Below are positions 22,866-55,300 of a stretch of DNA of 64,000 nt, one piece after another (positions within the stretch are counted from its first letter, which is position 1; each line of letters begins with the position of its first letter). The DNA is from Chiloscyllium plagiosum (Eukaryota), in contig NC_057757.1 of assembly GCF_004010195.1 (NCBI RefSeq), positions 4,203,111-4,267,110 on the forward strand, in the 5' to 3' direction. Position numbers and translations under genes: made by a program. The notes beneath the pieces were generated by a model. The model ran no database searches and was not told where the DNA came from. It worked only from the letters and a program-made list of their open reading frames with translations.

Positions 22866-23302
22866 TTATGCTGCCTTTTTAATATCTTTCTTCTCCCTCA
22901 GGGAACTGACCCAAACTCTCACACCTCATTCTGTTTTGTCCCGACTGTTCCATCCAGAACTGGGACAGTGCAAGGTGTCAAAGGAGAGAAGAGCTGTGGA
23001 TGACCTCTCACGGGAAGATGAGGATTGATTCCTGAGAGCAGGAGACGTGGGGATAGGGTCAGTGAGAGGTCAGGGTAGATTGCAGAGCGGGTCAGAGAGC
23101 TGATGGAAAGAGGGTGTGTGTTTCAAAAGACGTCAGTCACCCAACATGGGCCTTGGAGCCACATTGCTGAGATCCAGGCTCTCTCACATTGTCACCAACT
23201 GAGCCAACCAGAGATGATGCTGGGTGCTACCTCATCAGTTGTTGTAGTGAGGTAGTTCCCAGTGATTTCCCTAGCGATCATTTCGGGTTTTTAAAAAATG
23301 TT

Positions 23303-26688: not shown

Positions 26689-26693
26689 ATGTG
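26689..26693 (+). CDS. C1S: C1s-like coding exon 1 (ATG TG)
   Basis: aaacATGTG|GTGAGT. The 5-nt phase-2 start is typical of this family and completes MW with the next exon. Confidence 0.7.
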
Positions 26694-29600
26694 GTGAGTT
26701 GGAAAGAATTCCTCATATAATAGATATGCTTAATGCGTTTGCAATGCTGCAAGTGTAGCATTTCAGTCCTAAGTATGTTCTTCTTTATTTGAAGTAAACA
26801 TAGGCACAAAGCAACATAAGAAATGGGAGCAGGAGTAGGCCATTCGGCCCTTCGAGCCTGCTCTGCCATTCAATAAGATGGTGGCTGATCTCTCTGTGGC
26901 CTTAGCTCCACTTACCCATCCTCTCGCTGTAACCCTTCATTCCTTTATTGATTAAAAAAAAACTATCTTAGCTTTAAAAAACATTGACTGAAGGAGCATC
27001 AACTACTTCACTGGGCAAGGAATTCCATTGATTCACAACCCTCTGTGTGAAGGAGTTCCTTTTTAACTCAGTCCTAAATCTGCTCCTGCTAATTTTGAGG
27101 CTACACCGTCTTGCCCTAGTTTCACCTGCCAATGGAAACATCCTCTCTACATCTATCTTATCTATTCCCTTCATAATTTTGTATGTTTCTGTTAGATTCC
27201 CCCCCCCCCCCCCATTCTTCTGAATTCCAAGGAAAATCATCACAACCTACTCATAAGCCAATCCCCTCAACTCCGGAATCAACCCAGTGAACCTCCTCTG
27301 CACCCCCTCCAGTGCCAGTACATCCTTTCTCAAGTAAGGAGACCAAAACTGCACACAGTACTCCAGCAGTGGAACCTGCAGTGCTGGCCCCAATGTAGTG
27401 CTGCATTCAGTCAGTCTGCAGAGAAAACAGAGGCTCTTGATTCACTCAGACTAGTGAACGAACAGGGAGAGTGTCCAAATGAGAGTAAACTGTTGGTAAG
27501 AAGGTGTGTGTTTTTAAAATGAAGCACATCACCCAATGTGGGGTTGGAACACATAACTCTGAAACTCATGCTCAACCGACTGAGCTAACCAAGCCCGCAT
27601 ACTATCTCTCACTGCTGCCTTGGTGTAGTCAATTTGTTTCCCCTATTTTCCCCAGTGATTTTTTTTTCTTGTTTCAAATGTAAAAGTGCTGCTGCTTGAA
27701 ATCGGAAATTAAAACCATCATTAAAACTCATTCAGGCTCCTCCTCCTGCTGCTGTTGGGGAACCTGCAATTAACCTCCCTCCCACACACTCACTGCAAAC
27801 ACTCACAACCTGCAGCATTCACACGCAGCTTTCAGCACCGCCCCACTGGCTAAACTCTCTCTCTCTCGCACACACACATACACACACAGAAACAGAGAGA
27901 GGCAGACACGCACACATACAGAGAAACAGAGAGAAAAAGAAAGACAGAGAGGGGTCCGGGGGTGATACACAGAGAGAACAGGGACAGAGAGTGGGAGAAA
28001 GATACAGAGAAAGAGACTCTCATTGTCTATACAAAAGAGTTGCTTCAATGTTGTTTCCGTAGTGTAGTGGTAATTATGTTGCTTCACATGTCAAAGGTCC
28101 CCTAGGTGGGAATATTAAGCCTTGCTTCCTTCTTCCTCAGGATTCTGGTCAAAGTTCACATACTGTATTGTTACTCATTGTCCTGACAACCAGCCGTTCA
28201 ATCCAGAATTGTCATGGAATGCTTCCCACTTGATGGGGGCAATCCAACAGCACTCAAGAAGCTCGACACCATCCAGCTCTCACTTGATTGGCACCACATC
28301 CACAAACATCCACTCCCTCCACCACCAAAGCTCAGTAGCAGCAGCGTGTACCATTTACAAGAGACACTGCGGAAATTCACCAAAGATCCTCAGACAGCAT
28401 CTTTGAATGTATCATCTAGGAGGAGAAGGGCAACAAACACATCATCCCCTGCAGGTTCCCCTCTGAGCCACTCCCACCTGACTTGGAAATATAAGCAAGG
28501 AACAGGAGAATCGATGTTTCGGGCATAAGCCCTTCATCAGGAATGAGGAAAGTGTGTCCAGCAGGCTAAGATAAAAGGTAGGGAGGAGGGACTTGGGGGA
28601 GGGGCGTTGGAAATGCGATAGGTGGAAGGAGGTCAAGGTGAGGGTGATAGGCTGGAGTGGGGTGGGGGCGGAGAGGTCAGGAAGAAGCCGGAGTGGGGTG
28701 GACCTCTCCGCCCCCACCCCACTCCGGCCTATCACCCTCACCTTGACCTCCCTCCACCTATCGCATTTCCAAAGCCCCTCCCCCAAGTCCCTCTTCCCTA
28801 CCTTTTATCTTAGCCTGCTGGACACACTTTCCTCATTCCTGAAGAAGGGCTTATGCCTGAAATGCCGATTCTCCTGTTCCTTGGATGCTGCCTGACCTGC
28901 TGCGCTTTTCCAGCAACACATTTTCAGCTCTGATCTCCAGCATCTGCAGTCCTCACTTTCCCCCTGGAAGTATATCCGCCATTCTTTCAGTGTCGCTGGG
29001 TCAGAATCCAGTAACTCCATCTCTAACTGTACTGTGTGGGCGTCCCTACACCATATGGATTGCAGCAGTTCAAGAAGGCAGCTTACGTCTACCGTCGCAG
29101 GGGACAACTAGGGATGAGCAATCAATACGGGGCGCAGCCAGCGATGGCCACTTCCCATGAGTAAATAATAAGAACATATTGGGTGGCCTGGGACCAGAAT
29201 TGCACTGGAACCAATACATCACCAGGGCTAGTGTTGCACTGAGGGTCAGTACTGCATTGGGGTTATTGTTGCACTGAGGGTCAGTATTTCACTGGAGTTA
29301 GTGTTGCACTGAGGGTCAGTATTTCACTGGGGTTAGTGTTGCACTGAGGATCAGTATTTCACTGGGGTTAGTGTTGCTCTGAGGGTCAGTATTTCACTGG
29401 GGCTAGTGTTGCACTGAGGGTCAGTATTTCACTGGGGTTAGTTGCACTGTGGGTCAGTATTTCACTGGAGCTAGTGTTGCTCTGAGAGTCAGTATTTCAC
29501 TGGGGTTAGTGTTGCACTGAGGCTCAGTATTTCACTGGTGTTACTGTTGCACTGCGGGTCAGTATTTCACTGGAGCTAGCGTTGTACTGCGGGTCAGTAT

Positions 29601-32600
29601 TTCACTGGTGTTACTATTGCACTGTGGGTCAGTATTTCACTGGGGTTAGTATTTCACTGGAGCTTGTGTTGCTCTCAGGGTCAGTATTTCACTGGGGCTA
29701 GTGTTGCACTGATGGTCAATATTTCACTGAGGTTAGTGTTGCACTGAGGGTCAGTATTTCACTGGGGTTAGTGTTGCACTAAGGTCAGTATTTCACTGGG
29801 GTTAGTGTTGCACTGAGGGTCAGTATTTCACTGGGGTTAGTTTTGCACTGAGGGTCAGTATTTCACTGGGGTTAGTGTTGCACTGAGGGTCAGTATTTCA
29901 CTGCGATTAGTGTTGCACTGAGGATCAGTATTTCACTGGAGCTGGTGTTGCACTGACGGTCAGTATTTCACTGGTATTTGTATTGCACTGAGGGTCAGTA
30001 TTTCACTGGGGTTAGTGTTGCACTGAGGGTCAGTATTGAACTGGGAAGAATTGACTTTAATTTCTGTGCTCAGGCTCTGGAGAGGGCATGGGGAATGGTG
30101 TGTGTTGGGGGAGCATGACCTAGGAACCCTGGGGTTCTGAGATATGAGATGTAGCAGTGACGAATATTAATGGAGAGTCATGGTGTTTGCGAATCTTTTC
30201 TAATAATTCACCATTTTCAAAATGCCGGTTACTGGAGTCAGAACATTTGCTGGACCAAATATTCGGACTTCCAAAAAACATATATGTGCATATGTTAGTT
30301 TCTTTCATGGAATTGATGAGTCCTGTGACATCAGTCCTGTGAAGATGATTATCACGGGCCTATGTTATGAGGAGAGATTAAGCAGTTTACGCCTACACTC
30401 TCTGGAAATTAGTAAAATAAGAGATCTAACTGAGGTCTATAAGATGCGAAAGGCAATTGACAAAGTAGACATAGAAGGGATGTTTTCTCATGTGGAGCAA
30501 TTTAGAACGAGAGGTCACAGTTTTAGGATAATGGGCAGCAGATTTCAAACAGAGATGAGGAGGAACTGCTTCTCTCAAAGAGTTGGAGTATATGGAATTC
30601 ACTCCCCCAGAGTGTGACTGACACTGAGTAAATTTATGGAGGAGATAAAGCGGATTTTTAATTCGCAAAGGATTGAAGGGTTATGGAGAGAGAGCAAGTG
30701 GAGTTGGTTCTGAGATTCGATCAGCCATGATCATATTAAATGGTCAGAGAGTGTCAAGGGGGCAAGAATGAACTAAAGTGACATAAAGCCAGAAAGGGTA
30801 GTATTAAACCAGACAGAAAGTCTCCTCTGGGTTGCTCAGTTATTTACAGAACAGAGGATTCCAATGTCTGCCTCCTGTATTATAAACCAAGTATGCTGGC
30901 AGTCTCTCTTTACAAGTGCTCTTGTAAACAATACTTTGGCATCATAAGAATGACGTTTATTGTCACAGGCAGAAAAAAGATTGTAATGTTGCCGCTAATG
31001 GCGTTATCTTAGCGCCAAGATGCCTAGGTACAGATACTTACGTATTTGGTATAAAATTGAAAGAATAATAATTAAAAGTCCAACGTAAGAATAAAAAGGA
31101 CTGACAGTCTTTCCCATCCCAGTCTGCGCCAGCACCAAGCCTCCAGACTGCACTGGGCCAGGTCTCCGGACCATGCCAGGGTTCACGACCTCACTTCCAA
31201 ACCACAAGGGAATTGTCTCCCCGTGCAGGTCTCCAGTCCAGGACCTGTCTCCCCGCACCAGCCTCCAGTCCAGGACCTGTCCCCCCGCACCCGTCTCCAG
31301 TCCAGGACCCGTCTCCCAGCACCAGCCTCCAGTCCAGGACACCCTTCCCCACACCGACCTCCAGTCCGGGACTCCTCTCCCCACACCAGCCTCCAGACCG
31401 AGAATCCCCTCCCCCACACCAGCCTTTAGTCCGGGACTCCCCTCCCCCACACCAGCCTCCAGTCGGAGACTCCCCTCCCCCACACCAGTCTATGCGTTCT
31501 CCAAATAATCCAATTCATATGTAATTTGAGCATCAGAGGCTGAGTGGTGACCTTACGGAGGTTTATAAAATCATGTGGGGCATGGATAGAATAAATAGAC
31601 AGTGTCTTTTCCCTGCGGTGGGAGAGTCCAGAACTAGAGGGTATAGGTTTAGATTGAGAATGGAAAGATATAAAAGGGACCTAAGGAGCAACTCTTTCAT
31701 GCACAGGGTGGTACGTGTATGGAATGAGCTGTCAGAGGATGTGGTGGAGGCTGGTACAATTACAGCATTTAAGAGGCATGTGAATGGGTATATGAATAGG
31801 AAGGATTTAGAGGGATATAGGCCAAGTGCTAACAAATGGGCGTAGATTAGTTTAGGATATCTGGTCAGCATGGATGAGTTCGACTGAAGGGTCTGTTTCC
31901 GTGCTGTACATCTCTATGACTCTATGACTCCAACTGATTGGCCACAGGTCATCTGCTTTGATCTTGCTGGTAATTCCTGCATCCTGCGCCATTCAGCTGG
32001 AGCAACCTTCCGGAGAGTTCTTTTCCCCGAATCACCCTCTGCAATATCCAGCGTTCAGCAATAAGACCTGGGACATCTCTGCACCACAAGGTTACGTCGT
32101 GAAAGTTTATATCCCTTACTTGGACATTGAGCGATCGGAAGGATGTCAGAGCAGCTACTTACAGGTACAGTGAGACACAGAAACAATTGGCCAAGATTAC
32201 ACTGGGCCTGCTAAGCTTGTAATATCACAAACTACCATATATTGCTAAGCCTTGTATGGTGCAGAAGTAATGTCTCTAACTCTGAGCCACAAGAGCTGTG
32301 TTCAAATCCCACCTGCTCCAAAGTGTGCTAAAGCATCTCTACTGTGTTTTGCTCTGAGGTAGGTTAAGTTTTGTTGAGCTGTGAGATATGGACCATAGGC
32401 ATGTAGATGGAATTAAGCCACAGATTATCTCACTGAAAGATGGAACAGATTCTGAATGGCCTACTCCCATCATGTTTCCTTGAAAATGGAGTCGCAGGTA
32501 AATAGGATAGTGAAGAAGGCATTTAGTATGCTTTCCTTTATTGGTCAGAGCATTGAGTATTGGAGTTGGGAGGTCATGTTGCAGCTGTACAGGACATTCA

Positions 32601-35600
32601 TTAGGCTACTTTTGGAATATTGTGCTCACTTCTGGTCTCCTTCCTATCGGAAGGATGTTGTGAAGCTTGAAATGGTTCAGAAAAGATTTACCAGGATGTT
32701 GCCAGGGTTGGAGGATTTGAGCTATAGGGAGAGGTTGAATAGCCTGGGGCTAATTTCCCTGGAATGTTGAAGGCTGAAGGGTGACATTATAGAGGTTTAT
32801 AAAATCATGAGGCGCATGGATAGACTAAATAGACAAGGTCTTTGCCCTGGGGTGGGGGAGTCCAGAAGTAAGGGCATAGGTTTAGGGTGGGAGGGGAAAT
32901 ATTTAAAAGGGACCTAAAGGGCAACATTTTCATGCACAGGTTGGTGCATGTATGGAATGAGCTGCCAGAGCAAGTGGTGAAGCCTGGTACAATTACCGCA
33001 TTTAAAAGACATCTGGATGGGTATATGAATAGGAAAGGTTTAGAGGGGTATGGGCCAAGTGCTGGCAAATGGGAGTAGACTAGATTAGGATATCTGGTCG
33101 GCATGGATGAGTTGGGCCAAATTGTCTGTTTCCATGACTCTCTATGACTCTCTGACTCTAATTACCAGATATTTACCTCTTCCCTTTAGAATAGAGAAAG
33201 TTAAGAAGTTACCTCATGGAGACAATTAAGATCGGATGACAACGCGGGTTAGGCTTAAAAATGATGTTCTGTTTGTGTAAGAGACCCGAACTGAGGGGTC
33301 CTCTATAAAAGTCAGTCCCGAATTAATCCGCTGGGGAATTTGAACAAGAATCCTTCAATTCAGGGAGCCCAGCCTGTGTGGGAATGTAAATGTCAGTGTA
33401 GGCCATTTGGGCTGAATGGCCTGGTACACTGCTGTAAATAAGATGTAACCCGATATACCTTCATGGATTATTGTTCGTGCTGCAAAGGTTGATGTTCTGA
33501 GTACCATGGGGCCAAGATTTATCACTTGGGGACGACATTATGAACAAACTGCAGAGACGTTAAGTAGCTGATTTTTTTGTGTCATAATGTCATACAGCAC
33601 AGAAACAGGCCCTTTGGTCCTGCCAGTCCATGCCAAACATAATCCCAGACTAAATCAATCCTATCTGTCTGTGCTTGGTGCGTGTGCTTCCAAACATTTC
33701 CTTTCATGTACTTATCTAAATGTCTTTTAAATGTTGTAACTGTTGTAAATCCCCAAGACCTGATCAGGTGTACCCTAGAACTCTGTGAGAAACTATGGAA
33801 GTGATTGCTGGGCCCCTTGCTGAGATATTTATATCATCGATAGTGACAGGTGAGGTGCTAGAAGACTGGAGGTTGGCTAAAGTGGAACCACTGTTTAAGA
33901 AGGGTGGTAAAGACAAGCCAGGGAGCTAGAGACCGGTGAGCCTGACCTTGGTGGTGGGCAAGTTGTTGGAGGGAATCGTGAGGGACAGAATGTATATGTA
34001 TTTGGAAAGGCAAGGACTGATTAGGGATAGTCAACATGGATTTGTGCGTGGGCAGTCATGTCTCACAAACTTGATTGAGTTTTTTGAAGAAGTAACAAAG
34101 AGGATTGATGAGNNNNNNNNNNNNNNNNNNNNNNNNNNNNNNNNNNNNNNNNNNNNNNNNNNNNNNNNNNNNNNNNNNNNNNNNNNNNNNNNNNNNNNNN
34201 NNNNNNNNNNNNNNNNNNNNNNNNNNNNNNNNNNNNNNNNNNNNNNNNNNNNNNNNNNNNNNNNNNNNNNNNNNNNNNNNNNNNNNNNNNNNNNNNNNNN
34301 NNNNNNNNNNNNNNNNNNNNNNNNNNNNNNNNNNNNNNNNNNNNNNNNNNNNNNNNNNNNNNNNNNNNNNNNNNNNNNNNNNNNNNNNNNNNNNNNNNNN
34401 NNNNNNNNNNNNNNNNNNNNNNNNNNNNNNNNNNNNNNNNNNNNNNNNNNNNNNNNNNNNNNNNNNNNNNNNNNNNNNNNNNNNNNNNNNNNNNNNNNNN
34501 NNNNNNNNNNNNNNNNNNNNNNNNNNNNNNNNNNNNNNNNNNNNNNNNNNNNNNNNNNNNNNNNNNNNNNNNNNNNNNNNNNNNNNNNNNNNNNNNNNNN
34601 NNNNNNNNNNNNNNNNNNNNNNNNNNNNNNNNNNNNNNNNNNNNNNNNNNNNNNNNNNNNNNNNNNNNNNNNNNNNNNNNNNNNNNNNNNNNNNNNNNNN
34701 NNNNNNNNNNNNNNNNNNNNNNNNNNNNNNNNNNNNNNNNNNNNNNNNNNNNNNNNNNNNNNNNNNNNNNNNNNNNNNNNNNNNNNNNNNNNNNNNNNNN
34801 NNNNNNNNNNNNNNNNNNNNNNNNNNNNNNNNNNNGGAAAGATATAAAAGAGACCTAAGGGGCAATTCTTTCATGCAGAGGGTGGTATGTGTATGGAATA
34901 AGCTGCCAAAGGAAGTGGTGGAGGCTGGTACAATTGCAACATTTTAGAGGCATTTGGATGGGTATATGAATAAGAAGGGTTTGGAGGGATATGGGCTGGG
35001 TGCTGGCAGGTGGGACTAGATTGAGTTGGGATATCTGGTCGGTATGGACGGGTTTGACTGAAGGGAATGTTTCCGCACAGTACATCTCTATAACTCTATG
35101 ACTAAGAGGCCTCACCAATGTCCTGGACAACCTCAACATGACTTCCCAAAGCCAATACTCAAAGGACTGAGCAATGAAGGCAAACGTGCTAAACGCCTTC
35201 TTAACCACCTTGTTGCAATCTTCAAAGAATTATGTACTTGAGCCCCTAGGTCTCTCTATTCTACCAAACAACCCAAGGCCCAACTTTTAATTGTATATGT
35301 CTCACCCTTGTCTGTTTTACCAAAATGCAGCAGCTCACATTTATCTACATTGACCTCTGCAATTTTTCACCCATTGACCAAGACTCCTTTGTAACCTTAG
35401 ATAACCTTCTTCACTGTCCACTATGCCACCAGTTTTTTTTTTGTCTTCTGCAAACCTATTAACCAGGCCTTTTCTCTCTTCTCGTCCAAATAATTTCTGT
35501 AAATCATCCGTAACCTCTGTATTTACTTCCCTTGTGGCATTATGAATTGGAAGATTGGATTTTAAAAGCACCCAAGGCAAAGTGATAGGAACTTATCACC

Positions 35601-38600
35601 CATCTTTAATTGTCCAGAGGGGGTTGACAGTCAGGAAGCCAGAATAGCTGCTGTCCTTGCCCATCCCTGAGCACTCAGCAATGTGATGAACAGGAACAAG
35701 TTGTTAGTTGAATTCTACTATCTGCTAGTGGTGGGATGTGAACCGGCCACCACAAGTGGCCCCCTGGATTAATATCCCAGTGACAATGCCATTAGGCCAG
35801 TGCTGAACAGCTGCTGTGCTTAGGTCTTGTAATGCTTTAGGACTAATGCTCCAACACCAACCAACAGATCCTTTCGGAGGGAAGGGAACTGGCCAAGCTG
35901 TGTGGCAGGTGGGAAGATGATGGTAGCAATCTGAAACAGTATGAATACTATTCCACCAGCAACACACTGAGTGCCTTGTTCACATCCAAGAATCTTGAAT
36001 CCAAGCCGTTCACTGGATTTCTCGCCCTCTACTCCCGTGTCGGTAAGTCACCAAAATGTGCAGAGTCCAGAACCGTTTTCTCTTTGTTGGATTACTCCAT
36101 CGAGACCAGGCCATGGCAGCTCAAACCCAATGGCTCACGCAGCACAGGGTCCCAGGTTTGATTCCAGCCTTGGGCGACTGTCTGTGTGGAGCTTGCACAT
36201 CCTCCCCGTGTTTGCGTGGGTTTTCCCCGGGTACTCTGGTTTCCTCCCATGTGATATGCAGTTTAAGTGAACTGGCCATGCTAAATTTCCCAAAGTGTTA
36301 GGTGCATCATTCAGAGGGAAATGGGACTGGATGCATTACTCTTTGGAGGGTCGGTGTGGACTTGTTGGGCTGAAGGGCCTGTTTACACACTGTAGGGACT
36401 CTATCTAAATCTGCAATATTTGGCTTTTGAAAGTGCAGTTGTTGTTGTAATTCAGCGATATCCCCCTGCCCCTTAAAGACGAGATAATTCCCTTTTCCCT
36501 TTTCTCTGTCTGACTTTAATGACTGGGCCCTGTCTCCACCCAGATATCAATGAGTGTGCTGTCGATGACCATGGGTGCAGCCATTACTGCGGGAACACCA
36601 TTGGTAGCTACCACTGCTACTGCCCACGTGGTTTTGTCATTCAGAGCGATGCACGCACCTGCAAGAGTGAGTTTGCAACTGTTCAATATTTGCTTGAGAT
36701 GTCTCCACAATGGCGTCGCGTCAATGTCTGGTCTGGTTCGGTCCTTTGTATCAACAGATAGCATCCAATGTTGACAATTCCATGACATGAAGTTGGGACG
36801 GTTCGCGGTATTTGTCACATCCTCAGTTTTTCATCGGTGCTCCGACCCAATGATGACGGGGAATTGTCAGAGGAAGTGTCAAGTTCCCCTCCCAGCCTTT
36901 CCCCCGGCTTGGAAATATATCAGACATTCTTTCAGTGTTGTTGTATCAGAATCATGGAACTCCGTCTCTAAAGGCCCTGAATCTGGGTGTCCCTGCACCG
37001 CATGGGACTGCGGCGTTTCCAGAGGTCAGCTCACTCCGGCTTTCTTGAGGGGGCAGTTAGGGACGGGCGGCAAATGCTAGCCCAGTTAGTGATGCCTGGG
37101 TCTAAATAAAAGAAGTTTAAGCCAGCCCATGGGTGTGTAATTCATCGGAAGGAGGCAACACTAGCCTTGTACTTGACTACCGGTTTCTCAGCTAGAAGCT
37201 AAAACGGAGTGCAAAGCATTTCCAGGACAAAAGGAGGCCATTCAGCCCCTTCCTTACAATTCCCCCCTCCTCCATGTCTTCCTCCTTGGAATGAACCAAT
37301 GCTATTAACCCCTACGACGCCCTGTCGTGTTCTCACCTCTCACTGAGTGACAAGACTTCTGTTTGATGTTGTGCTGAGTTTGTTGTTAATGTCGCTGGAG
37401 AAACTGTGTGTAAAAAAGTGGGGGAGGGGGTGAGGTGGGCAAATTTTCTCCTTCCTGCCCCGCAGCTCAAGGCGCTGGCAGTCTCTCCTAGTCCAGCAAA
37501 TGAGCTGGATACATCCTGACGTTATGGAGCGAACTAGGGGCCAAGTTTCATTCATACCCCCAACCTCCTCCTTTCTCCTTCACTGACCTACCCCAAAACC
37601 CATCCACCCATGAGGCCAGCTCGTCCCACCTCACAAAAACCCTGCATCCAATGAGGCCATTCAACCCAGCAAATCCAACTACCCAGCAATCCAGTCAGTC
37701 CCATTTCCACCCTCCTCCTCCCTAATTCCAGGATCATACCCCTCAACTGTCCATCCAATTTCCCTTAAATTGATCCCGCCTCATGCCTCCATTTCTCCGC
37801 ATTAATGTCTTTTTACTCTTACAAAGGCTTCTAGCAATTGGATTTTCGTTTGTTGTCTTGAGTAAATGCTTCAATTATAGAGTCGAAAAGCATGGAAACA
37901 GATCCTTTGATCCAACTTGTCCATGCCAACCAGGCACCCCAACCTGACCATTTTGTCCATATCCCTCTCAACCCTTCCTATTCATATACTCATCCAGATG
38001 CCTTTTAAATGTTGTCATTGTACCAGCCTCCATCACTTCCAATGGCAGCTCGTGCCATACACGCACCACCCTCTGTGTGGAAAAAGTTGCCCCTTAAGTC
38101 ACTTTTGAATCTTACCCTCTCACCTTAAACCTATGCCCTGTAGTTTTGGATTCCCCCAACCCACCGTAAAGACTGGGGCTATTTACCCTATCCATGCCCC
38201 TCATGATTTTATAAACTTCCATAAGTTCACCCCTCAGTCTCTGATGCTCCAGGGAAAACATTCCCAGCCTTTGACCTCTCTCTCATGACCTTACAGAGGT
38301 TTATAAAATCATGAGGGGCATGGATAGGGTGAATAGCCAAAGTCTTTTCCCCAGGGTAGGGGAGTCCCAAACTAGAGGGCATAGGTTTAAGGTGAAAGTG
38401 TAAAGATTTAAAAGGGACCTGAGGGGCAGTTTTTTTCACACAGAGGGTAGTTTGCACAGAGGAAGTGGTAGATGCAGATACAGTTGCAACATTGAAAAGA
38501 CATTTGGATGGGTACATGAATAGGAAAGGTTTAGAGGGATATGGGCCAAATACAGACAAATTGGGCTAGATTCGTTTGGGAAATCTGGTTGGCATAGACG

Positions 38601-41600
38601 AGTTGGACCGAAGGGTCTGTTTTAATATTGCAGACTCAATGACTCTATTCAGCTCTCCCTGTAACTCAAGTCCTCCGGTCCTGGTAACATCCTTGTAAAT
38701 CTTTTCTGCACTTTCTCAAGTTTAACAATATCCCTTATATTGAAGGGAGAGTAGAATTGAACACAGAATTCCAAAAGTGGCCTAACCAATGTCCTGCACG
38801 GTCGCAACATGACCTCCCAACTCCTATACTCAATGCACTGACCAAAAAAGGCAAGAGTACCAAATGCCTTCTTCACTATCCTATCTACCTGTGACTCCAC
38901 CTTCTAGGATCTATGAACCTGCACCTCAAGGTCTCTTTGTTCGGCAACATGCCCCAGGACCATACCGTTAAGTGTATACGCCACTTCCTGATTGGCCTTA
39001 CCAAAATGCAACACCTCACATTTATCCATCTGCCACTCCTCGGCCCATCGGCCCATCTGATCAAGGCCCCGTTGTACTCTGAGGTAGCCTTCTTCACTAC
39101 GCCCCCAATTCTGTTTCAATATTTTCAGCTCCGTTTCTTCAGTTCCATTTCTCCAGTGACTCTGGCTCCAGCAGCGTGACTTTTTAAAACATGGACGGAC
39201 GGCCTTGTGTTTCTACCTACAACTTCTTGTCATGTTTCGTCCACAGAAGTACACGTGTTTTGCCCCAATCGGGTTCTACAGAACAGTATCCTGGACCCCT
39301 CCTGGCCAAGGTTCGATGTTCGAGACACCGTGAAGGTGACCTGTGAACCAGGATATGAAATAGTCAAGGTGAGGGTCTAATATTGCCATCTGAAATATAG
39401 AAAGCAGGTGCAGGAGTAGGCCATTCGGCCCTTCAAGCCTGTACCACTTATTCCTGGTTGACCGTGCAAACTCAGTATCCCATTCCCATTTTCCCTCCAT
39501 TACCCCTCGATCTCTCTACCTGCAAGAGTCACGTCCAGTTCCCGTTTCAATATATGGAATGAACCAGCCCCGACGGCTTTCTGCGTGAGAGAATTCCATA
39601 GGTTCCCAACTCCCCGAGTGAAGAAATTCTCCCTCATCTCAATCTGGTCATTTACTGAGGGATGCCTCCATATCCGTCCATTCACTCCTCTCCAATTATC
39701 TGCCAAAATGCCTCTTAAATGTTGCTATTGTATACCCCTCCACCATCCCTTCTAGCAGCATATTTGAGGCACTTAATTTGCCTCTCATAGGGCAGCTCAG
39801 TGATCAGCACTGCTGCCTCATGGCACCAGGGACCTGTGTTTGATGCCAGCCTCGGAGCGACTGTCTGCGTGGAGTTTGCATATTCGCCCCCTGTCTGCGT
39901 GGGGGTTTCCTCCGGGTGCTCTGGTTTCCTCCCACAGTCCAAAGATGTGCAGGTTAGGTGGACTGTCTGTGCTAAATTGCTGTAATATGGGGAATGCTGG
40001 GATAGACCAGGGAGTGGGCCTGGATGGCATGCTGTTTGAAGGTTTGATGTGGACTTGTTGGGCCGAATGGCCTGTCCCCACACAGTAACGATTCTATGAC
40101 ATAAACTTGCCCCCTCTTACCTTAAACCCATGTCCCTTAATAATTGCCATGTCTACCCCAGAAAAAAAAGACATGATTATCTAGGCCTCTTGTAATTTTG
40201 TAAACTTTTATCAGGTCACCCCTCAACCTCCAATATTCAAGCAAAAACAAACCAGTACCTCAGGGTCCCAGGTTCGATCCCAGCCTCAGGTGTGGAGTTT
40301 GCACATTCTCCCCGTGTCTGTGAGCGTTTCCTCCCACAGTTCAGAGATGTACAGGTTAGGGTCCATTGGCCACGCTAAATTGTCCCATAGTGTTCAGGGA
40401 TATGTAAGTTAGGTGCAGAGGAAATGTAGGGGAATGGGTCTGGGTAGGTTACTCTTCAGAGGGTCAGTGTGGACTTGTTGGGCCAATATGACTTATTTAT
40501 ACACTGTAGGGATTCTGTGGAACAACATAGCTAATACTCTCTCCAAAGACTCCACATCCTTCTGGTAATGTGGCAACCAGAGCTGTACACAATATTCCAA
40601 ATGTGGCCCAACTAACGTGCTTATACAGCTGCAAGGTGACTTGTCAGCTTTTGTACTCAATACCCTGATTAAGGAATGCAAGTATGGCCTCCTTGACCAC
40701 CTTATCCACTAGACATGTTCAAGGAATTGTGGATCTGTATACACGGATCACCCAGTATGTTAAATCTGAGTCTGAGATCTTAATCCTACTGTCGTGCAGA
40801 TTGATGCAATGATGATATCACGAGGATGTCTGTTAATGGTACACTGTATACAAACAGTGACAACAAAGTGGAAAGGTTCAGGGAAGGGATTCTGAAGACT
40901 AGGGCCCAAACAGCTCAAGGCTCAGGCGCCATTGGTGGAGCGATGGGAAGCGAGGACCCACAAAAGGCCAGAAGAGGAGGAGTGTGGAGATCTCGGAGGG
41001 TCGTGGGTCTTGTGCCGGAGGAAGAGGATGGGAACATGAGTTAATGTACAAACAAATGAACAAAATTAGGCCATTTGGCCCTTCAAGCCTGCAACCCCCT
41101 CTCCCGAGCCATTCCATGTGATCATGGCTTATCTGACTTTAATCTCACCTCTACGCTGTTAAATTTTCCAATGAAGTTAAGTTATACCAATTTATTCTTT
41201 CTTTTGTTGTATTTTACCTGATGTGTTTGAGTAAAGTGGGTTTTATTTCAATTCTGGTAGTTTGACCAAACAAATTGCATTCGGAACGTAACACCTTACA
41301 CTTACCTTTAAAATAAGAAAAAGTTAGGGTCCAGACTATTTTCTGAATATGTCTTGAGGAGGTTTGGACTAGTCAATAACAATTACTCGGGGGGAAATGT
41401 AGACTAATAGGGTATAGGGGAATGGGTCTGGGTGGGATACTCTTTGGAGGATCAGTGTGGACTTGTTGGGCCAAATGGCCTGTTTCAACACTGTAGGGAT
41501 TCTATGATTAATTAACATCTTTGCACAAGTATGACCAATGCCATCAAAAAAATGCAAAGATGGTTTTAGACTCAAAGCTAATGCGTTGTTATAATAATCT

Positions 41601-44600
41601 CTCTTAGGGATATCAGACAATCCCACACTTTTACGCAGAATGTCACGAAGATGGGACTTGGAAGACTCCAGATTACAGCTGCCAGCGTGAGTGGGCTTCC
41701 ACATGAGTGAGAATGTCTTCCGTTTTATGCCATACCATCCAACCTATTAGCTGGCACTGTGAGAAACGTCAAAACTGCATTCAGCTTAGTGACGATCATC
41801 AAGACACCAGCAATGGGAAGCCATCTCGTTCACTTATGTCCACCTTTGCCCTGTCCCAACCTTCCCAAATCAGTTGGTAAAGAATAAGACCAGTGCTGTG
41901 TCTTCTAGCCCCACATTGGGCGGCTGACCCATGATTGGCAAAGTAGGCATCCTCCAAGTGACTCCAGACTTACACACAACAATGTAGTTGGCTTTGGACT
42001 GCCCTAGTGAGCCACAGACTTCAACAGTCGTAAAATTCCTACGGTGTGGAAACAGGCCATTTGACCCATCCCAATCCTCCAAAGAGCATCCCACACAACT
42101 CCAACCCCCGACCTTAACCCTGTGACCCTGCATTTTCCATGGCTAACCCACACATTCCTAGACACTTTGGGACAATGTAGCACAGCCAATGCACCCTAAC
42201 CTGCACATCCCTGGGCACTATGGGACAATTTGCAATGGCCAATCCACCCTAACCTGCACATCCCTCGGCACTATGGGGCAATTTACAATGGCCAATTCAC
42301 CCGAACCTGCACATCCCTGAACACAATGGGACAATTTAGCATGGCCAATCAACCCTAAACTGCACATCCCTGGGCACTATGTGACCATTTAGCATGGCCA
42401 ATCCACCCTAACCTGCACATCCCTGGGCACTATGTGACAATTTGCAATGGCCAATCCACCGTAACCTGCACATCCCTGGACACTATGGGACAATTTAGCA
42501 TGGCCAATCAACCCTAAACTGCGTCCTTTTCCAGCAACACATTTTCAGCTCTGATCTCCAGCATCTGCAGTCCTCACATTCTCCTCGACAATTTAGCATG
42601 GCTAATCCACCTTAAACTGCACATCCCTGGACACTATGGGACAATTTAGCATGGCCAATCCACCCTAATCTACACATCTCAGGACACTTTGGGACAATTT
42701 AGCATGGCCGATCCACCCTAACATGCATGTACCTGGACACTATGGGACAACATAGCACAGCCAATCCACCCTAACCTGCACATCCCTGGACACTACGGGA
42801 CAACTTAGCATGGCCAACCCACCCTAAACTGCACATCCCTGGACACTATGGTACAATTCAGCATGGCCAATCCACCCTTCCCTTTGGAGAACTATAGATC
42901 AGCAGAAATTGCTGGAAAAGCATCAGCAGGTCTGTGGAGAGAAATCAGAGTTACCATTTCAGGTTGAGTGACCCTTCCTCAGGACCGCAGCTGTGTATGA
43001 GCCAGACGTAAATATTTTCCCGATCACACCTGCTTGGGGATATAGCACCTTTTGAGCAGGTGGGGCTTGAATGCAGGTCTTGTGTTTGAGGGGGACACTA
43101 TCACTGCACCACATGAGCAGGCAACATAAGTCAGCGGGCATTGTGAGAGATAAAAGTTGAGGTTCTGTATTGAAACACAACTAGCTAATCCAATAGCTCT
43201 GTTATATTTTCTGTTTACAGTTGTGGATTGTTCAGTTCCACCTTCAATTGAGAACGGGCAGTTTGCGTTTATTACGAAAGCCGCTGTGACCACCTACAAA
43301 GCTACAATTCGGTACCAGTGTGATGAGCCTTATTATCAGCTGCAGATAGACCATCATCGTGAGTCAAATCATTTTCAGGAGGAGTGGGTTGTTTTTATTT
43401 GAAAAGAGAGGAAATATTTTGAATGCCACTGAAATAATATTGAGTTTCATCCTAGAATAACATTTGCTATTGTTTAGTGTGAAGTTACAAGTTGTTGACA
43501 GCAGTGGCCATTCTGCCCACTGCTCCTGTGCTAGCTCTCTGTGACAGCAACTCTGCGCGTCACTCTTACCCCCTCCCCCACCTCATCCCCTGCGTCATCT
43601 TCCTCCTGATTTGATTTTATTTATTACTGTCACATGTGCCGGGTTACAGTGCAAAGTATTGTTCTGCGTGCTAAGCAGACAGATCCTACCTGATAGAGGT
43701 GCATAAGATTCTGAGGGACACGGACAGGGTGGATAAAAAGGGTCAATAACCAGGGGGCAAAATGTTAAAATGAAAGGCAGAAGGGGGTTTCAGGAAGTGG
43801 TTTCTCACCCAGAGGGTGTGCCTGTGAAAGGGTTCCATGATGCACATTGTACAAGGGGCTCAAATTAAAACCAAATCTGGCAGAATGGTGTGGGACTACA
43901 ATCCTTGACTCCGTCATTGACAAATGTGTACAATCTCTTGGCAGGAGACTTCCACTGCACAGCTGAAGCAACGTGGGAAAATAATGCGACAGGTCAAGAT
44001 CTGCCGAAATGCACCCCAGGTAACCGAGGGGAGTGAATCCGTGGAATGCTTCACCACAGAGAGCTGTCGAAGCTGGGCATTCGAGGCTGAGATAGATTTT
44101 TAATCAGGAAGGGGATCAAGGGTTACTTCTGAAGAAGGGTCACCAAACTCTGTCCGCGAGGAGTTTGCATGTTCTCCCCGTGTCTGCCTGGGCTCTGTCC
44201 GGTTTCCTCCCACAGCCCAAAGGTGTGCAGATTGGGTGGATTGGCTGTCCAGGGGTGTGCAGACTAGGTGGGTTAACCATGTTTAAAAACCCCACATTAG
44301 GTTACATGGAGGCGCTGGGTCAGTGTGGGATGCTTTTTAGTGAGTTGGTGCAGACTTAATGGGCCGAATGGTCTCTTTCTGCACCATAGGGATTCTATGA
44401 TTCCATAATTCCATGTTTCTAGGATTGCATGATTCCAAGATTCTATGATTCCATCATTCTATGATTCCATGATTCTTTCTAAGATTCTATGATTTCATTA
44501 TTCTAAGATTCCATAGTTCTCTAATTCCATCATTCTATGATTCCATAGTTCTATCATTCTATGATTCCATGATTCTGTGATTCTATTACTCTACAATTCC

Positions 44601-47065
44601 ATGATTCTATAATTCCATGCATCTATAATTGTACAGCTCCATGATTCTGTCATTCTACTATTCCATAATTCTATCATTTTGTGATTCTACGACATCATGA
44701 CTCCATGATTCTACAATTCTACAATTCCACGATTCTATCATTCGATGATTCCATAATTCTATGATTTGGTAATTCTATGACACGAAACGTTAGCGCTGCA
44801 TTCTCTCTTTCTTCACAGATGCTACCAGAGCCCGCAGAGTTTCTCTGGCAGTTTCAGTTTTCCCCTTGAGATTTCCAGTGTTGGTTTTAATCATAGGGAA
44901 GTCGAGGGTGGCGGGAGAAAGGAGGCAGGGAGGTGGAGCTGGGGATGACCAGATGAGTCACTGGCTCTGACAATGGAGCAAATAGCCTGCTCTCATTCTC
45001 ACGGCTTCCTGATGAAGAGTCTTATCTTTTCTCTCTCTCCTCCCTGTGTGTGTGTCTGTGTATCTGTGTGTGTGTGTCTGTGTATCTGTATCTGTGTGTG
45101 TCTGTGTATGTGTGTGTCACTGTATATATATGTGTGCCATTGTGTCTGTGTATCTCTGTGTGTGTATATGTGTGCCTCTGCATCTGTAAGTAGGGGGATG
45201 GTGCTGGAAAAGCACAACAGGTCAGGCAGCATCCCAGGAGCGGGNNNNNNNNNNNNNNNNNNNNNNNNNNNNNNNNNNNNNNNNNNNNNNNNNNNNNNNN
45301 NNNNNNNNNNNNNNNNNNNNNNNNNNNNNNNNNNNNNNNNNNNNNNNNNNNNNNNNNNNNNNNNNNNNNNNNNNNNNNNNNNNNNNNNNNNNNNNNNNNN
45401 NNNNNNNNNNNNNNNNNNNNNNNNNNNNNNNNNNNNNNNNNNNNNNNNNNNNNNNNNNNNNNNNNNNNNNNNNNNNNNNNNNNNNNNNNNNNNNNNNNNN
45501 NNNNNNNNNNNNNNNNNNNNNNNNNNNNNNNNNNNNNNNNNNNNNNNNNNNNNNNNNNNNNNNNNNNNNNNNNNNNNNNNNNNNNNNNNNNNNNNNNNNN
45601 NNNNNNNNNNNNNNNNNNNNNNNNNNNNNNNNNNNNNNNNNNNNNNNNNNNNNNNNNNNNNNNNNNNNNNNNNNNNNNNNNNNNNNNNNNNNNNNNNNNN
45701 NNNNNNNNNNNNNNNNNNNNNNNNNNNNNNNNNNNNNNNNNNNNNNNNNNNNNNNNNNNNNNNNNNNNNNNNNNNNNNNNNNNNNNNNNNNNNNNNNNNN
45801 NNNNNNNNNNNNNNNNNNNNNNNNNNNNNNNNNNNNNNNNNNNNNNNNNNNNNNNNNNNNNNNNNNNNNNNNNNNNNNNNNNNNNNNNNNNNNNNNNNNN
45901 NNNNNNNNNNNNNNNNNNNNNNNNNNNNNNNNNNNNNNNNNNNNNNNNNNNNNNNNNNNNNNNNNNNNNNNNNNNNNNNNNNNNNNNNNNNNNNNNNNNN
46001 NNNNNNNNNNNNNNNNNNNNNNNNNTGCCTGAGACTGTGTGTGTGAGAGAGCGTGTGTGTGAGAGTGAGTGTGTATGAGAGAAAGTGAGTGTGTGTGTGT
46101 TTGTGTGTGCATCTGTGTATCTGTGTCTGTGTACCTATGTGTGTGTGTGTATCTATGTGTGTGTGTGCATGTGCGTCTGTGTATCTGTGTGTGTGCCTGC
46201 ATGCGTGTGTCTGTGTGTGTGCGTGTGTGTATCTGTGTCTGTGTGCCTATGTGTGTGTGTGTGTGTGTGTGTTGCAGTGTGTGGGAAGCCCAGTAACCCA
46301 CTGGTCTTCGGTGAGAGGATCCTGAAGGGCTCGGTGGCGAAGAGGGGCAACTTCCCGTGGCAGGTGCTGTTCCAGAAACCCCGGGGGGCTGGGGCACTCA
46401 TCTCAGACCAGTGGGTGCTGACAGCTGCCCATGTGGTCCACAGGATGTCGGGATTGTCCATGATCGCGGGTATCACCGACACCAGGAAGGCGAGCGAGGG
46501 CACGCGGCTATTCGCCGACGGGGTCTTCGTCCACCCGGGCTACCACCCCCCGCAGGACGACGCCTACGACTACAACAACGACGTGGCCCTTGTCCGCCTG
46601 AGGTCCAAGCTCCGGCTGGGAGCCGACCTGTCGCCCATCTGTCTGCCCGGCCGCGATGCCCGCCACGCCCTGCCCACCGGCAAGGTGGGGCTGGTCTCCG
46701 GCTGGGGGGTGACCGAGAACGACACGCTGCCCGAGCAGCTCATGTACGTCCGGCTGCCGGTCAGGGAGCTGAGCGAGTGCCGCGAAAAGACGGCCGGGCT
46801 CCGCGTCACCGTCACCGACAACATGATCTGCGCCGGCGACCAGTCGGGGGCGGACAGCTGCCAGGGTGACAGCGGGGGGGCCTTTGTCTTTGCCCGCCCC
46901 AAGCCCCGACGCAACGAGTTCTTCGTGGGCGGGGTGGTCTCATGGGGGGTCAACTGCGGCACGTTTGGCTTCTACACCAAGGTGGCCAACTACCTGGACT
47001 GGATCGAGAAAACGATGAGGGAGAATGAACCTCTTCCCTCGCCTAGCGCCGGGTCACTGCCCTGA
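26689..47065 (+). CDS. C1S: Complement C1s-like serine protease (CUB-EGF-CCP-CCP-SP; no CUB2), 9 coding exons, 573 aa
   Basis: Exons 26689-26693, 31948-32164, 35868-36042, 36544-36666, 39247-39368, 41608-41686, 43221-43358, 43945-44019, 46278-47065 total 1722 nt, are all GT-AG and in phase, and contain no internal stop. The protease domain resembles C1s. Confidence 0.88.
27530..27594 (-). pseudogene. tRNA-Lys pseudogene
   Basis: Degenerate copy of 23600-23672 with the anticodon arm deleted; flanks ~27410-27900 are homologous to ~23480-23990. Confidence 0.75.
28053..28114 (+). pseudogene. tRNA-Val pseudogene
   Basis: GTTTCCGTAGTGTAGTGGT..GCTTCACATGTCAAAGGTCCCC..GGTGGGAAT; T-arm/B box deleted. 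Confidence 0.7.
28496..28960. mobile_element. Penelope-end fold-back (~183-bp inverted arms, 22-nt loop)
   Basis: 28496-28678 is the reverse complement of 28701-28883; approximate TSD TGGAAATATA / TGGAAGTATA. Confidence 0.8.
28509..28544 (-). ncRNA. Minimal hammerhead-ribozyme core (Penelope-type)
   Basis: Minus strand ATTC-CTGATGA-A-GGGC-TTAT-GCCC-GAAAC-ATC-GATT: catalytic core boxes with a perfect stem II. Confidence 0.5.
29225..30045. repeat. Minisatellite, 35-bp unit (gtgttgcactgagggtca-gtatttcactggggtta)
   Basis: More than 20 tandem copies; the unit is a dimer of related 18- and 17-bp halves. Confidence 0.92.
31225..31490. repeat. C-rich minisatellite (cagcctccagtccaggac..ccccacac)
   Basis: About 8 imperfect copies; explains the Pro-rich ORFs 31173-31524. 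Confidence 0.8.
31948..32164 (+). CDS. C1S: C1s-like exon: signal peptide + CUB1 N-half
   Basis: ccacag|G..CAG|gtacag; [52 protein letters not shown]. Confidence 0.88.
33750..35105 (+). mobile_element. CR1/HER1 LINE fragment spanning an assembly gap
   Basis: [32 protein letters not shown] before the gap; 3'UTR after the gap. Confidence 0.8.
35868..36042 (+). CDS. C1S: C1s-like exon: CUB1 C-half
   Basis: caacag|ATC..G|gtaagt; [36 protein letters not shown]. Confidence 0.85.
36544..36666 (+). CDS. C1S: C1s-like exon: Ca-binding EGF
   Basis: cccag|AT..A|gtgagt; [41 protein letters not shown]. Confidence 0.92.
39247..39368 (+). CDS. C1S: C1s-like exon: CCP1 N-half
   Basis: ccacag|AA..AAG|gtgagg; [40 protein letters not shown]. 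Confidence 0.85.
41608..41686 (+). CDS. C1S: C1s-like exon: CCP1 C-half
   Basis: ctcttag|GGA..C|gtgagt; [26 protein letters not shown]. Confidence 0.85.
42170..42880. repeat. SINE-derived tandem repeat, ~54-bp unit
   Basis: gggacaatttagcatggccaatccaccctaacctgcacatccctggacactat repeated ~12 times, interrupted by a Penelope-end piece at ~42525-42585. Confidence 0.85.
43221..43358 (+). CDS. C1S: C1s-like exon: CCP2 N-half
   Basis: tttacag|TT..C|gtgagt; [30 protein letters not shown]. Confidence 0.9.
43945..44019 (+). CDS. C1S: C1s-like exon: CCP2 C-half
   Basis: ggcag|GA..G|gtaacc; [24 protein letters not shown]. Confidence 0.85.
44390..44780. repeat. (GATTCYAT)n 8-mer expansion of a SINE tail
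   Basis: Continuous degenerate GATTCTAT/GATTCCAT array directly after the SINE 3' end. Confidence 0.85.
46035..46272. repeat. (TG)n-rich microsatellite abutting the protease-exon acceptor
   Basis: Degenerate TG repeat running directly into ttgcag|. Confidence 0.9.
46278..47065 (+). CDS. C1S: C1s-like exon: single-exon trypsin-like serine protease domain
   Basis: VCGKP..ER|ILKG activation site, [21 protein letters not shown] (Ser codon AGC), VSWG, no histidine-loop Cys; ATTAAA at 47091. Confidence 0.95.
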
Positions 47066-52300: not shown

Positions 52301-55300
52301 ATCTCAAAATTTCATTTATGGATGTCTTGTGAAAATGGGGTCAGGGATCAGCAGTGACCTTCATTCCTCACTGTCAATAGTTTGTAACATTTGTCAAAGA
52401 GGGAGTGTCTGGAAGGCCTGGAGAACTTTCAACCTTGGGTTGGTGAGCAGTGAGGAACATGCTTACAACGCCGTTGTCAAACAGTCACTACCACCAGTCA
52501 ACGAGAGACGAGGCTCCCACCCCCGCGATGGTCAATGGAGTCACCGTCATTGAGAAGCTCCATCCTTGAGAGTCCGCCATTGACCAGGCAGCGAACAGAA
52601 CCAATGGCTATTGGTTCAGTGGTTGACTCAAAGGAAGTTCTCCTACCTCTAAGCCAACCAGTCTTCGTTCAAGACCACCCTCAGGAAGTGATGGCCAGCA
52701 ATGAGGGGCTGTACGGTGGCTCAGTGGTTAGCACTGCTGCCTGTCAGCACTAGGGGACCCAGGTTCAATTCCAGCCTCAGTGTGGGGAGTTTGCAAGTTC
52801 TCCCTGTGTCTGCATGGGTTTCCTCCAGGTGCTCCAGTGTCTGCCCACAGTCCAAAGATATGCAAGTCAGGTGAATTGGCCATGGTAAATTCACCATAGC
52901 GTTAGGTGCATTAATCAGGGTTAATTGTAGGGGAATGGGTCTGGGTGGGTTGCTCTTCGGAGGGTTGATATGCACTTGGGCCAAAGGGCCTGCTTCCGCA
53001 CTGTAGGGAATCTAATCTAATCGTCCAATCAAGTAATTATAAATGGCCATCTTGCAGAGGTGCCAGTGTTGGACTGGGGTGGACAAGGTCAGAAGTCACA
53101 ATGTTATAGTCCAACACTTTCATTTGAAATCACAAGCTTTTGGAGCGCTGCTCCTTGGTCAGGTGACCTCTCACAAAAAAAAAGGTTACAGAGGCTAGGA
53201 ATCTTGATAGAGGTGTACAACATGACGAAACGCATATGTAGAGTGGATAATCAGGTGGAATTGGCTATCATGAGGGGGCATAATTTTTACGATGATTTGA
53301 GGAAGGTTTTGGGGAGATATCAGAAGTAGGTTCTTTACACAGAGAGTGGTGGGTGTGTGGAATGCACAGCCAGTGGTAGTAGTAGTAGAGGCAGGTATAT
53401 TAGAGACTTTCAGCAACTCTTGGATAGGCACATGGAAGTTAGTATAATGAAGGGTATGGAGGTTAGTTTGATCTCAGAACAAGATGAAAGTTCAGCACAA
53501 CATCGAGGGCTGAAGAGCCTGTACTGTGCTGTACTGTTCTATGTTCTAAGTTCTAGGTAATTCACCTTCCTGACTGCCCAAGGTTGATCCACCATTAACA
53601 AGGCACGAGTCAAGAGTGTGAGGGACTACTCCCCACTTGCCCCAGATGGGGGCAGCTCCAACAACACTCAAGAAGCTTGACACAAATCAAGGACAAAGCA
53701 GTACCCAGCTTGATTGGCACCACATCCACTCCCTCCACCGCAAATCCCTAAGACCATAGGAAATTGGAACAGGAGTAGGCCATTTGGGTCTGCTCCACCA
53801 TTCAATAGGATAATGGCTGATCCGACATTCCTCATATCCACGATTCCCTGACTGACCAAGAGTCTATCTCAACCTTAGAACAGGACTCTGCCCCCACAGG
53901 TCTCTGTGGCAAGGAGTTCCAAAGACTCAGAAACCCTCTAAGGGAAGAACTCCTTCCTCATCTCAGTCTTAAATCGGCTCCCCTTTATTCTGAGACTGTG
54001 CCCTCTGGTTAGGGGATTCACTCTCTCAGCATTGATCCTGTCAAGCTCCTTATGAGTCCTGCATGTCCGAATGAGATCACCTCTCATTTTTCTAAACGCC
54101 AATAAGTAGAGTCCCAACCTGTTTAGTCTTTGCTCACAAACAATCCCTCCACATCCTGGTCTCTATCGAGTCAACCTTCTCCAGCGAGCTCAGGAGCAGC
54201 AGTGTGTACCAACTACAAGATGCAGTGTAGAAACTCACCTACAAAAGCCTGATGTTGGAGGATGGAGATTTCTCAACAAGGTGGACATTTAAAGGAATAC
54301 ATGCGGGGGAGTCCCATCGCTGGTCATTGAGATGTCTTAACATCGGAAGTTTTGGTCAAAGATGCGGAACGTGATCTCAGCGAGTGCCTGTTCATTGTTG
54401 GCTCCAACAAGAGAAAACCCTGAACCCTGGAGAGAATTTCTGAGTCAACCACATCAGATGGATGTATCACTACCTGGTATGGCAACTGTACCATTCAACA
54501 TCGGAGACAGTTACAGAGAGTGGTAAACTCGGCCTGTGCAATCACAAAGGCCGACATCCCATCCACAGAATCCATCTCCCAGGCCCGCTGTCAAGGAAAG
54601 GCCGCCAGCATTCTCAAAGATCCATCCCACCCTGGCAATAACCATCGGGGAGAAGGTACAGAAGCCTGAACACACGCACCAGCTGGTTTCACAACAGTTC
54701 CTACCCTACTGTTGGTAGAATACTGAATGGACTCACAAACTTTAACATTCGCCTGTACCTGTGTCTTTGTTTTTGCTACTGTTTACCTATTATTTACTTA
54801 TCTATGTTACTTAACTTTGTGATCTGCCTGTATTGCTCGCAAAACAATGCTTTTCACTGTGCCTCTGTACATGTGACAATAAATTCAATTCAATTCAGAA
54901 TGGATCCCTTTAATTCTGCCCCTTTATCTCCTTGTTCCACCCAGGGCTCTGCTCGTACTGTGGGGTTTAGGTGACGGGGCGTTGGCCGAAGCTAACCACT
55001 CTGGCGTTTATGGTGAGATTTATTTGACAAATTACCAACATGACGATGCTCGGGCGTGGGACATTGAGGTCCCACCGGGATTTGCTGTGGGATTTCACTT
55101 CCGCCACTTTGATTTGTCAGCATCTCCGTCATGTAAGCGGCACTATTTGGAGGTACCTCAACTATTTGTCCTGTTATATAGAGATGATGTTCCACTGTGT
55201 AGCTTATGGGCAAGTGCTGGCATAGTGGGCGCGTCACTGAGCTCGGAAATCCATGCCAATGTCTTGGAGGGCCAAGCGTTTGCAACTCCACCACAGTATA

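Follow-up and report, generated by a model that had tools for sequence, protein, structure and literature searches.

A 64,000-nucleotide stretch of the Chiloscyllium plagiosum genome (the window; G000:C48:4203111-4267110, in a genome of 3.56 Gb) contains an intact gene, here called gene 1, for a protease of the C1r/C1s/MASP family with the domain order CUB1-EGF-CCP1-CCP2-serine protease (SP), from which the second CUB domain (CUB2) is missing. To our knowledge, the six-domain order CUB1-EGF-CUB2-CCP1-CCP2-SP has been treated as invariant for the active C1r, C1s, and MASP enzymes. It is virtually certain that the CUB2-less gene is real and ancient, and the loss is neither recent nor species-specific. 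We consider it rather likely that this gene of the C1s/C1r family, which is common to the cartilaginous fishes, encodes a CUB2-less, predicted secreted, Arg-cleaving zymogen that would act outside the C1q complex. New here, beyond a preliminary description of the locus, are the loss of the collagen-binding site in CUB1, an altered C4 exosite, and a neighboring pseudo-protease gene.

Gene structure and absence of CUB2

The coding sequence (CDS) of gene 1 is located on the forward strand and comprises nine exons, all with AG/GT ends, which join to 1722 nt encoding 573 amino acids plus stop, with no internal stop codon. Exon 1 (26689..26693) consists of the ATG and two further nucleotides before a phase 2 donor, GTGAGT (ortholog N-termini are MWS/MWA/MWL in Cetorhinus, Narcine, and Sphyrna). 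The signal peptide and the first half of CUB1 are encoded by exon 2 (31948..32164), the second half by exon 3 (35868..36042), and the calcium-binding EGF domain by exon 4 (36544..36666). CCP1 is split between exons 5 (39247..39368) and 6 (41608..41686), and CCP2 between exons 7 (43221..43358) and 8 (43945..44019). Exon 9 (46278..47065) contains the linker, the activation site (R↓ILKG), and the intronless trypsin-type protease domain, and ends with the stop codon at 47063-47065. Pfam searches of the exons matched CUB (exon 2, E 9e-10), EGF_CA (exon 4, E 2e-9), Sushi, and Trypsin (exon 9, E 2e-52). The open 1722-nt CDS, the His/Asp/Ser triad (His57, Asp102, Ser195), the S1 aspartate (Asp189), and the Arg-Ile activation site named in the preliminary description are all present, and the CUB1-EGF N-terminus, the CCP-CCP-SP C-terminus, and the exon phases are those of the C1r/C1s/MASP family. 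The nearest named relatives of the protein are found in carpet sharks. A predicted structure (AlphaFold) of the Cetorhinus ortholog confirmed the domain folds, with a predicted local distance difference test (pLDDT) score of 74.8 and a predicted template modeling (pTM) score of 0.55; the EGF domain was poorly resolved and the EGF-CCP1 geometry was not confirmed. The introns also contain minisatellites at 29225-30045 (35 bp), 31229-31491 (32/64), 42143-42878 (53), and 44391-44766 (8/24).

In six-domain relatives, CUB2 lies between EGF and CCP1. The EGF exon of gene 1 ends in phase 1 and the first CCP1 exon begins in phase 1, and the spliced gene model joins them in frame to read ..RTCK-KVHVFCP, as previously described. 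The intervening intron (36667..39246) has a length of 2580 nt and an N count of 0; the two N-runs in the gene are located in introns 2 and 8, which agrees with the earlier statement that this 2.6-kb intron has no N-gap. As the preliminary description had proposed, the intron was searched for remains of CUB2. Hidden Markov models (HMMs) for CUB1, CUB2, and both CUB2 halves, which were trained on 14 six-domain C1s proteins, reached a top score of 0.4 bits within it, versus 66-70 bits for CUB2 and 40-79 bits for the half-domains in two six-domain genes on G000:C41 that served as positive controls. A tblastn search of the intron with 10 CUB2 domains gave nothing meaningful (best E 0.016, one of the 10 below 0.1), and blastn with the two CUB2 exons from C41 had a best E of 0.53. 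Across the whole of gene 1, CUB signal was limited to exons 2 and 3, and was of the CUB1 type (45 vs 15 bits). The earlier characterization of the intron as containing only remnants of long and short interspersed elements and no CUB frame holds with respect to CUB, but slightly overstates the repeat content, because 1160 nt, in three stretches that are not CUB-like, are unique; 1419 of the 2580 bases (55%) match repeats elsewhere in the examined DNA.

Orthologs and age of the short form

Ortholog searches, extended to other shark genomes as had been suggested, recovered 17 chondrichthyan genera. In 15 of these the N-terminal half is present, which makes them informative for the architecture: Rhincodon, Stegostoma, Heterodontus, Heptranchias, Pristiophorus, Cetorhinus, Scyliorhinus, Mustelus, Sphyrna, Mobula, Pristis, Narcine, Leucoraja, Rhinoraja, and Callorhinchus. 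The models from Carcharodon and Hypanus are 5'-truncated, lack the N-terminal half, and were left out of the architecture count. CUB2 is absent in all 15 informative genera, which include sharks, rays, and Callorhinchus. Seven orthologs aligned to the window protein with 52-86% identity and 0-5 gap positions, as compared to 69-92 gap positions in five six-domain relatives. Logan yielded two contigs (1878 and 1774 nt), both of which encode 560 amino acids and cluster with Leucoraja; since their length leaves no space for eight introns, they represent spliced skate transcripts, and in both the EGF runs directly into CCP1 with no CUB2 in between. The Sphyrna zygaena protein BAU69614 (“C1s2”) is also an ortholog of gene 1, and lacks the EGF in addition to CUB2. 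A six-domain C1s coexists with the short form in the same animals, including Callorhinchus. The loss of CUB2 must predate the split between chimaeras and elasmobranchs, because Callorhinchus is sister to the elasmobranchs within the CUB2-less clade. A form conserved between chimaeras and sharks is roughly 400 million years old.

Catalytic, dimerization, and docking residues

His57, Asp102, Ser195, Asp189, and the activation Arg (Arg-Ile/Val) are kept in 18/18 gene 1 orthologs. Judged by these residues, the protease is very probably catalytically active. The EGF calcium ligands Asp116, Glu119, and Asn134 are likewise kept in all 13 orthologs that possess an EGF. According to PMC4222235, the EGF calcium site controls the head-to-tail CUB1-EGF dimer.

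The same paper describes collagen binding of C1s by Glu45, Asp98, and Ser100, with Asp53 and Tyr52 being essential, and of C1r by sites in both CUB1 and CUB2. Tyr52, Asp53, and Asp98 are found in none of 14 gene 1 orthologs (in the window protein they are replaced by Ser, Ser, and Lys, respectively), and were kept in the controls, which were seven of seven six-domain chondrichthyan C1s and five of five other six-domain proteins. With CUB2 absent and the CUB1 residues lost, no collagen site is left in the gene 1 protein, which would probably be independent of collagen stems. The anion-binding exosite by which C1s contacts C4 is formed by K575, R576, R581, and K583 (PMC9637899). Lys or Arg occurs at the equivalents of 575, 576, and 583 in 0/18 gene 1 orthologs and at 581 in 2/18, and an N-x-T sequon for an N-glycan (N-D-T in the window protein) begins at 575 in all 18. 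The corresponding loop of six-domain shark C1s is basic, with Lys or Arg at 575 or 576 in 8/11, and positions 581 and 583 are mostly non-basic.

Phylogenetic position and origin

Trees were calculated with IQ-TREE (LG+G4) from 50 selected rows, with the CUB1-EGF and the CCP2-SP halves treated separately. In both trees the gene 1 orthologs formed one clade (support 100/99) that did not cluster with MASP orthologs. The N-terminal half of this clade grouped with C1s (93/96), and for the C-terminal half the clade fell outside C1r (99/98), as part of a polytomy. A constrained tree with gene 1 as sister to the six-domain shark C1s had a p value of 0.35 in the approximately unbiased test (p-AU). The protease phylogeny that the preliminary description had called for thus places gene 1 outside C1r, though with weak rejection of C1r membership, and apart from the MASPs, and “C1s-like” appears to be the best, if provisional, label. 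A C1r/C1s chimaera, considered because of C1r-like motifs, was not supported, as the N-terminal half groups with C1s, but is conceivable.

Gene 1 and C1s share the intronless protease exon, the exon phases, the triad, Asp189, Arg-Ile activation, and the EGF calcium site, and C1s is the best match of gene 1 in the PDB both by sequence (4j1y, E 4e-106) and by fold. Unlike C1s, gene 1 lacks CUB2 and the CUB1 calcium and collagen residues, and has the sequon in place of the exosite. Its identity to the six-domain chondrichthyan C1s (G000:C41; Squalus H9LDW9; Callorhinchus V9KLY1) is 34-37%, and the latter is encoded on a separate chromosome in C. plagiosum. With C1r it shares the CCP2-linker motif VCGKP-NP, the motif GFYTKV, and a non-basic exosite loop as in Stegostoma C1r; it differs in lacking CUB2 and the collagen sites and in its placement apart from C1r by the C-terminal tree. 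C1RL (C1r-LP) has the domain order CUB-CCP-SP, and unnamed CUB-CCP2-SP proteins fell into the C1r clade. Like gene 1, C1RL is a domain-reduced family member, and it provides a model for Arg-specific processing of a related pseudo-protease. Gene 1 differs from it by retaining the EGF and both CCPs, by belonging to a different clade, and by Asp189, as opposed to Ser189 given for C1r-LP in PMC7914634.

In the six-domain paralog on C41, the EGF exon ends in phase 1, the first CUB2 exon begins and the second ends in phase 1, and the first CCP1 exon begins in phase 1. Deletion of the CUB2 exon pair preserves the reading frame because of these flanking 1-1 phases, and the paralog upholds the earlier proposal that a phase-1/phase-1 cassette was lost. 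A C1s-like ancestor would have been duplicated, followed by in-frame deletion of the symmetric CUB2 exon pair. Six-domain MASPs are present in hagfish and a hemichordate, which indicates that the short form is derived and not primitive. The distinct CUB-EGF-CCP-CCP-SP architecture claimed in the preliminary description is upheld by the chondrichthyan orthologs, but is not unique: the same order is found in database models from the lungfish Protopterus (XP_043935627), the salamander Pleurodeles (KAJ1122377), and the piranha Pygocentrus (XP_017555935). These paralogs acquired it separately, since a single origin of all CUB2-less forms of shark, lungfish, salamander, and piranha was rejected (p-AU 0.001). 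Each of them was found in a single lineage, and neither the lungfish nor the piranha copy has His57 or Ser195. A still shorter order, CUB-EGF-CCP-SP, was seen in bichirs, salamanders, a frog, and milkfish. This recurrence of both reduced architectures across lineages indicates that the CUB2 cassette is repeatedly lost in duplicated paralogs, and such independent losses show that loss of the 1-1 cassette is a path repeatedly taken toward derivatives resembling C1RL and haptoglobin. Among the CUB2-less paralogs, the shark gene stands out by its breadth and its intact catalytic residues. Another rearranged family member, the Polypterus model P0100, has the order CUB-EGF-CUB-EGF-CCP-CCP-SP.

A neighboring pseudo-protease gene

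About 8 kb downstream of gene 1 and on the same strand, Pfam and profile scans identified a second family member (gene 2) that encodes a pseudo-protease of the order CUB-EGF-CCP-SP. Its signal peptide and first CUB half are located at 54945..55152, the second CUB half at 58466..58643, and a calcium-binding EGF at 61162..61293; the single CCP and the protease exon follow about 3.5-9.4 kb past the end of the window, to about G000:C48:4276500. No CUB trace was detected between its EGF and CCP in HMM and sequence scans. In 11/11 species the gene 2 protease domain lacks His57 and has Gly in place of Ser195, with the R↓I site and Asp189 kept. The CUB collagen residues are absent (0/8) and the EGF ligands are kept (8/8). 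Gene 2 shows a weak affinity to C1r in its N-terminal half and to C1s in its C-terminal half; when genes 1 and 2 were constrained to be sisters, the fit slightly exceeded that of the unconstrained tree (+4.7 lnL, p-AU 0.61).

Models in which both genes are fused exist in nine genera (Rhincodon, Stegostoma, Heterodontus, Heptranchias, Mustelus, Mobula, Hypanus, Pristis, and Narcine), which shows that the adjacency of the two genes is conserved. The fusions themselves are probably annotation artifacts, given the gene 1 stop codon, the second signal peptide, and variable low-complexity linkers.

Proposed role and alternative explanations

The gene 1 zymogen would be secreted and form head-to-tail dimers via CUB1-EGF, either with itself or with the gene 2 product. 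Since CUB2 is gone and the CUB1 site is degenerate, C1q, MBL, and collectins would not be expected to recruit it, and C4 is unlikely to be the main substrate because the exosite has been lost. The enzyme may carry out narrow processing of Arg-Ile/Val bonds in zymogens of its own family, comparable to the cleavage of pro-haptoglobin, itself a pseudo-protease, by mammalian C1r-LP (PMC5856381 and PMC7914634). The leading candidate for a substrate or partner is the gene 2 product, which retains the R↓I site in all 11 species and is itself non-catalytic. Such a partnership is suggested tentatively and is more doubtful than the other parts of the proposal. Slightly more doubtful again is the extended scheme of a two-gene module, kept since before the chimaera-shark split, in which an active CUB2-less protease and a pseudo-protease would pair via CUB1-EGF, independently of C1q, and the first would process the second in a complement-derived plasma system apart from the classical and lectin pathways.

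Several observations weigh against an enzyme that works outside the C1q complex or in tandem with gene 2. The gene 1 protein might yet enter C1 as a CUB1-EGF heterodimer with C1r. Glu45 is kept in 12 of 14 orthologs, and in Callorhinchus positions 53 and 98 are both Glu, with Ser100 and Asn101 also present, so that a weak collagen site is possible there. The argument from C4 is weakened because the human exosite is only partly matched in six-domain shark C1s. Grouping with C1r was weakly rejected for the C-terminal half (p-AU 0.036) and not rejected for the N-terminal half (p-AU 0.17), and the exosite loop of gene 1 resembles that of Stegostoma C1r. Finally, a tandem position is by itself no proof of partnership.

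The main rival explanation builds on the heterodimer and takes gene 1 as an alternative C1s subunit: C1r would supply the contacts to C1q, and the shorter arm would serve to cut some shark C4 or C2/B isoform. The C1s zymogen as closest solved structure, the grouping of the N-terminal half with C1s, and the intact EGF calcium ligands are in line with this idea, as are two points from the literature, namely that C1s CUB2 contributes none of the residues that PMC4222235 lists for C1q binding, and that several C3/C4 isoforms exist in some cartilaginous fishes (PMC6795676). It is nevertheless unlikely in view of the loss of the collagen site from the protein's own CUB1 (0/14), the replacement of the exosite by a sequon (18/18), and a six-domain C1s with intact CUB1 site in the same animals. 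Retention of the dimer module together with loss of the docking site would also suit a fluid-phase regulator or decoy, which would pair via CUB1-EGF with C1r, C1s, or MASPs to yield dimers that bind collagen stems poorly and dampen activation, with proteolysis being secondary; several CUB2-less paralogs of bony vertebrates (lungfish, piranha) are indeed catalytically dead. However, the invariance of the catalytic, S1, and activation residues in 18/18 orthologs indicates selection on proteolysis and makes such a role quite improbable.

Even less credence can be given to a natural read-through product of both genes with two protease domains. The joined models in nine genera, with a short join in Rhincodon and Pristis, are offset by the stop codon of gene 1, the separate signal-peptide exon of gene 2, linkers of widely differing length (from zero up to about 800 low-complexity residues), unfused models or transcripts from Cetorhinus, Callorhinchus, the skates, and Sphyrna, and the fact that tandem teleost C1s/C1r genes are fused likewise in models. 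An assembly artifact in which CUB2 exons were dropped might be suspected from the two N-gaps in other introns of gene 1, but is effectively refuted by the same junction in 14 genera assembled independently, as well as in the spliced skate contigs.

Published and database sequences

RefSeq and UniProt already contain orthologs of gene 1, under unspecific labels such as “C1s-like” or “calcium-dependent serine proteinase-like,” and many of the RefSeq models are fused to the neighboring gene. No published description of the CUB1-EGF-CCP-CCP-SP form was found in a search that did not cover a 2016 paper on hammerhead complement, from which “C1s2” probably stems and which may mention the form. In PMC11312191, non-classical architectures of chondrichthyan C1sL and C1rL are listed as primitive, including a Hypanus model of the order SP-CUB-EGF-CCP-SP. 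This Hypanus C1sL, as far as it is described there, matches a 5'-truncated gene 1-gene 2 fusion in species and architecture only, and the Stegostoma C1rL accession given in the same paper points to an incomplete model of low quality, in which the CUB scored as CUB2. PMC9207270, PMC6015906, and PMC7768046 contributed nothing further on architecture. The results presented here correct database models and one published reading in which fused or truncated shark sequences were taken as primitive C1s or C1r.

Gene 1 is a natural five-domain form in which the losses of a domain, of C1q-docking residues, and of the C4 exosite go together, and it thereby offers a natural test of the purpose of CUB2 and the collagen sites. 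Of the lineages that possess antibodies and a classical pathway, the cartilaginous fishes branched off first. The gene suggests a C1q-independent role of a C1s-type protease in a lineage for which PMC6795676 reports absence of MBL and ficolin and a truncated or missing MASP-2.

Other loci

MASP-1/3-like and MASP-2-like loci are present elsewhere in the genome (G000:C13, C34). The latter (G000:C34:11351600-11357060; L025, L026) consists of MASP-2-like CUB1-EGF exons; CUB2, CCP, and protease were not found in about 36 kb downstream, and the locus fits the reported protease-less shark MASP-2. The two C1s-like genes on G000:C41 (L005-L013) are near-identical, about 0.63 Mb apart, and on opposite strands; one carries Ser195Ala, and in the other the protease exon is broken or contains a gap. 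An intronless protease domain of the C1r clade with Ser195Thr, possibly a retrocopy or orphan, is located at G000:C10:14142371-14143201 (L014), and no CUB, EGF, or CCP exons were found in about 52 kb upstream of it. The 1-kb contig G000:C426 (L017) contains a pseudo-protease domain, which we take to be haptoglobin-like by its motifs.

Upstream of gene 1 and in opposite orientation, the window contains a BIR-domain gene on the minus strand (about 6850-12180; Pfam BIR E 2e-23 at 11515-12177), which is presumably NAIP-like. A probable tRNA gene, judged by its six-frame translation pattern, is located at about 22790-22870.

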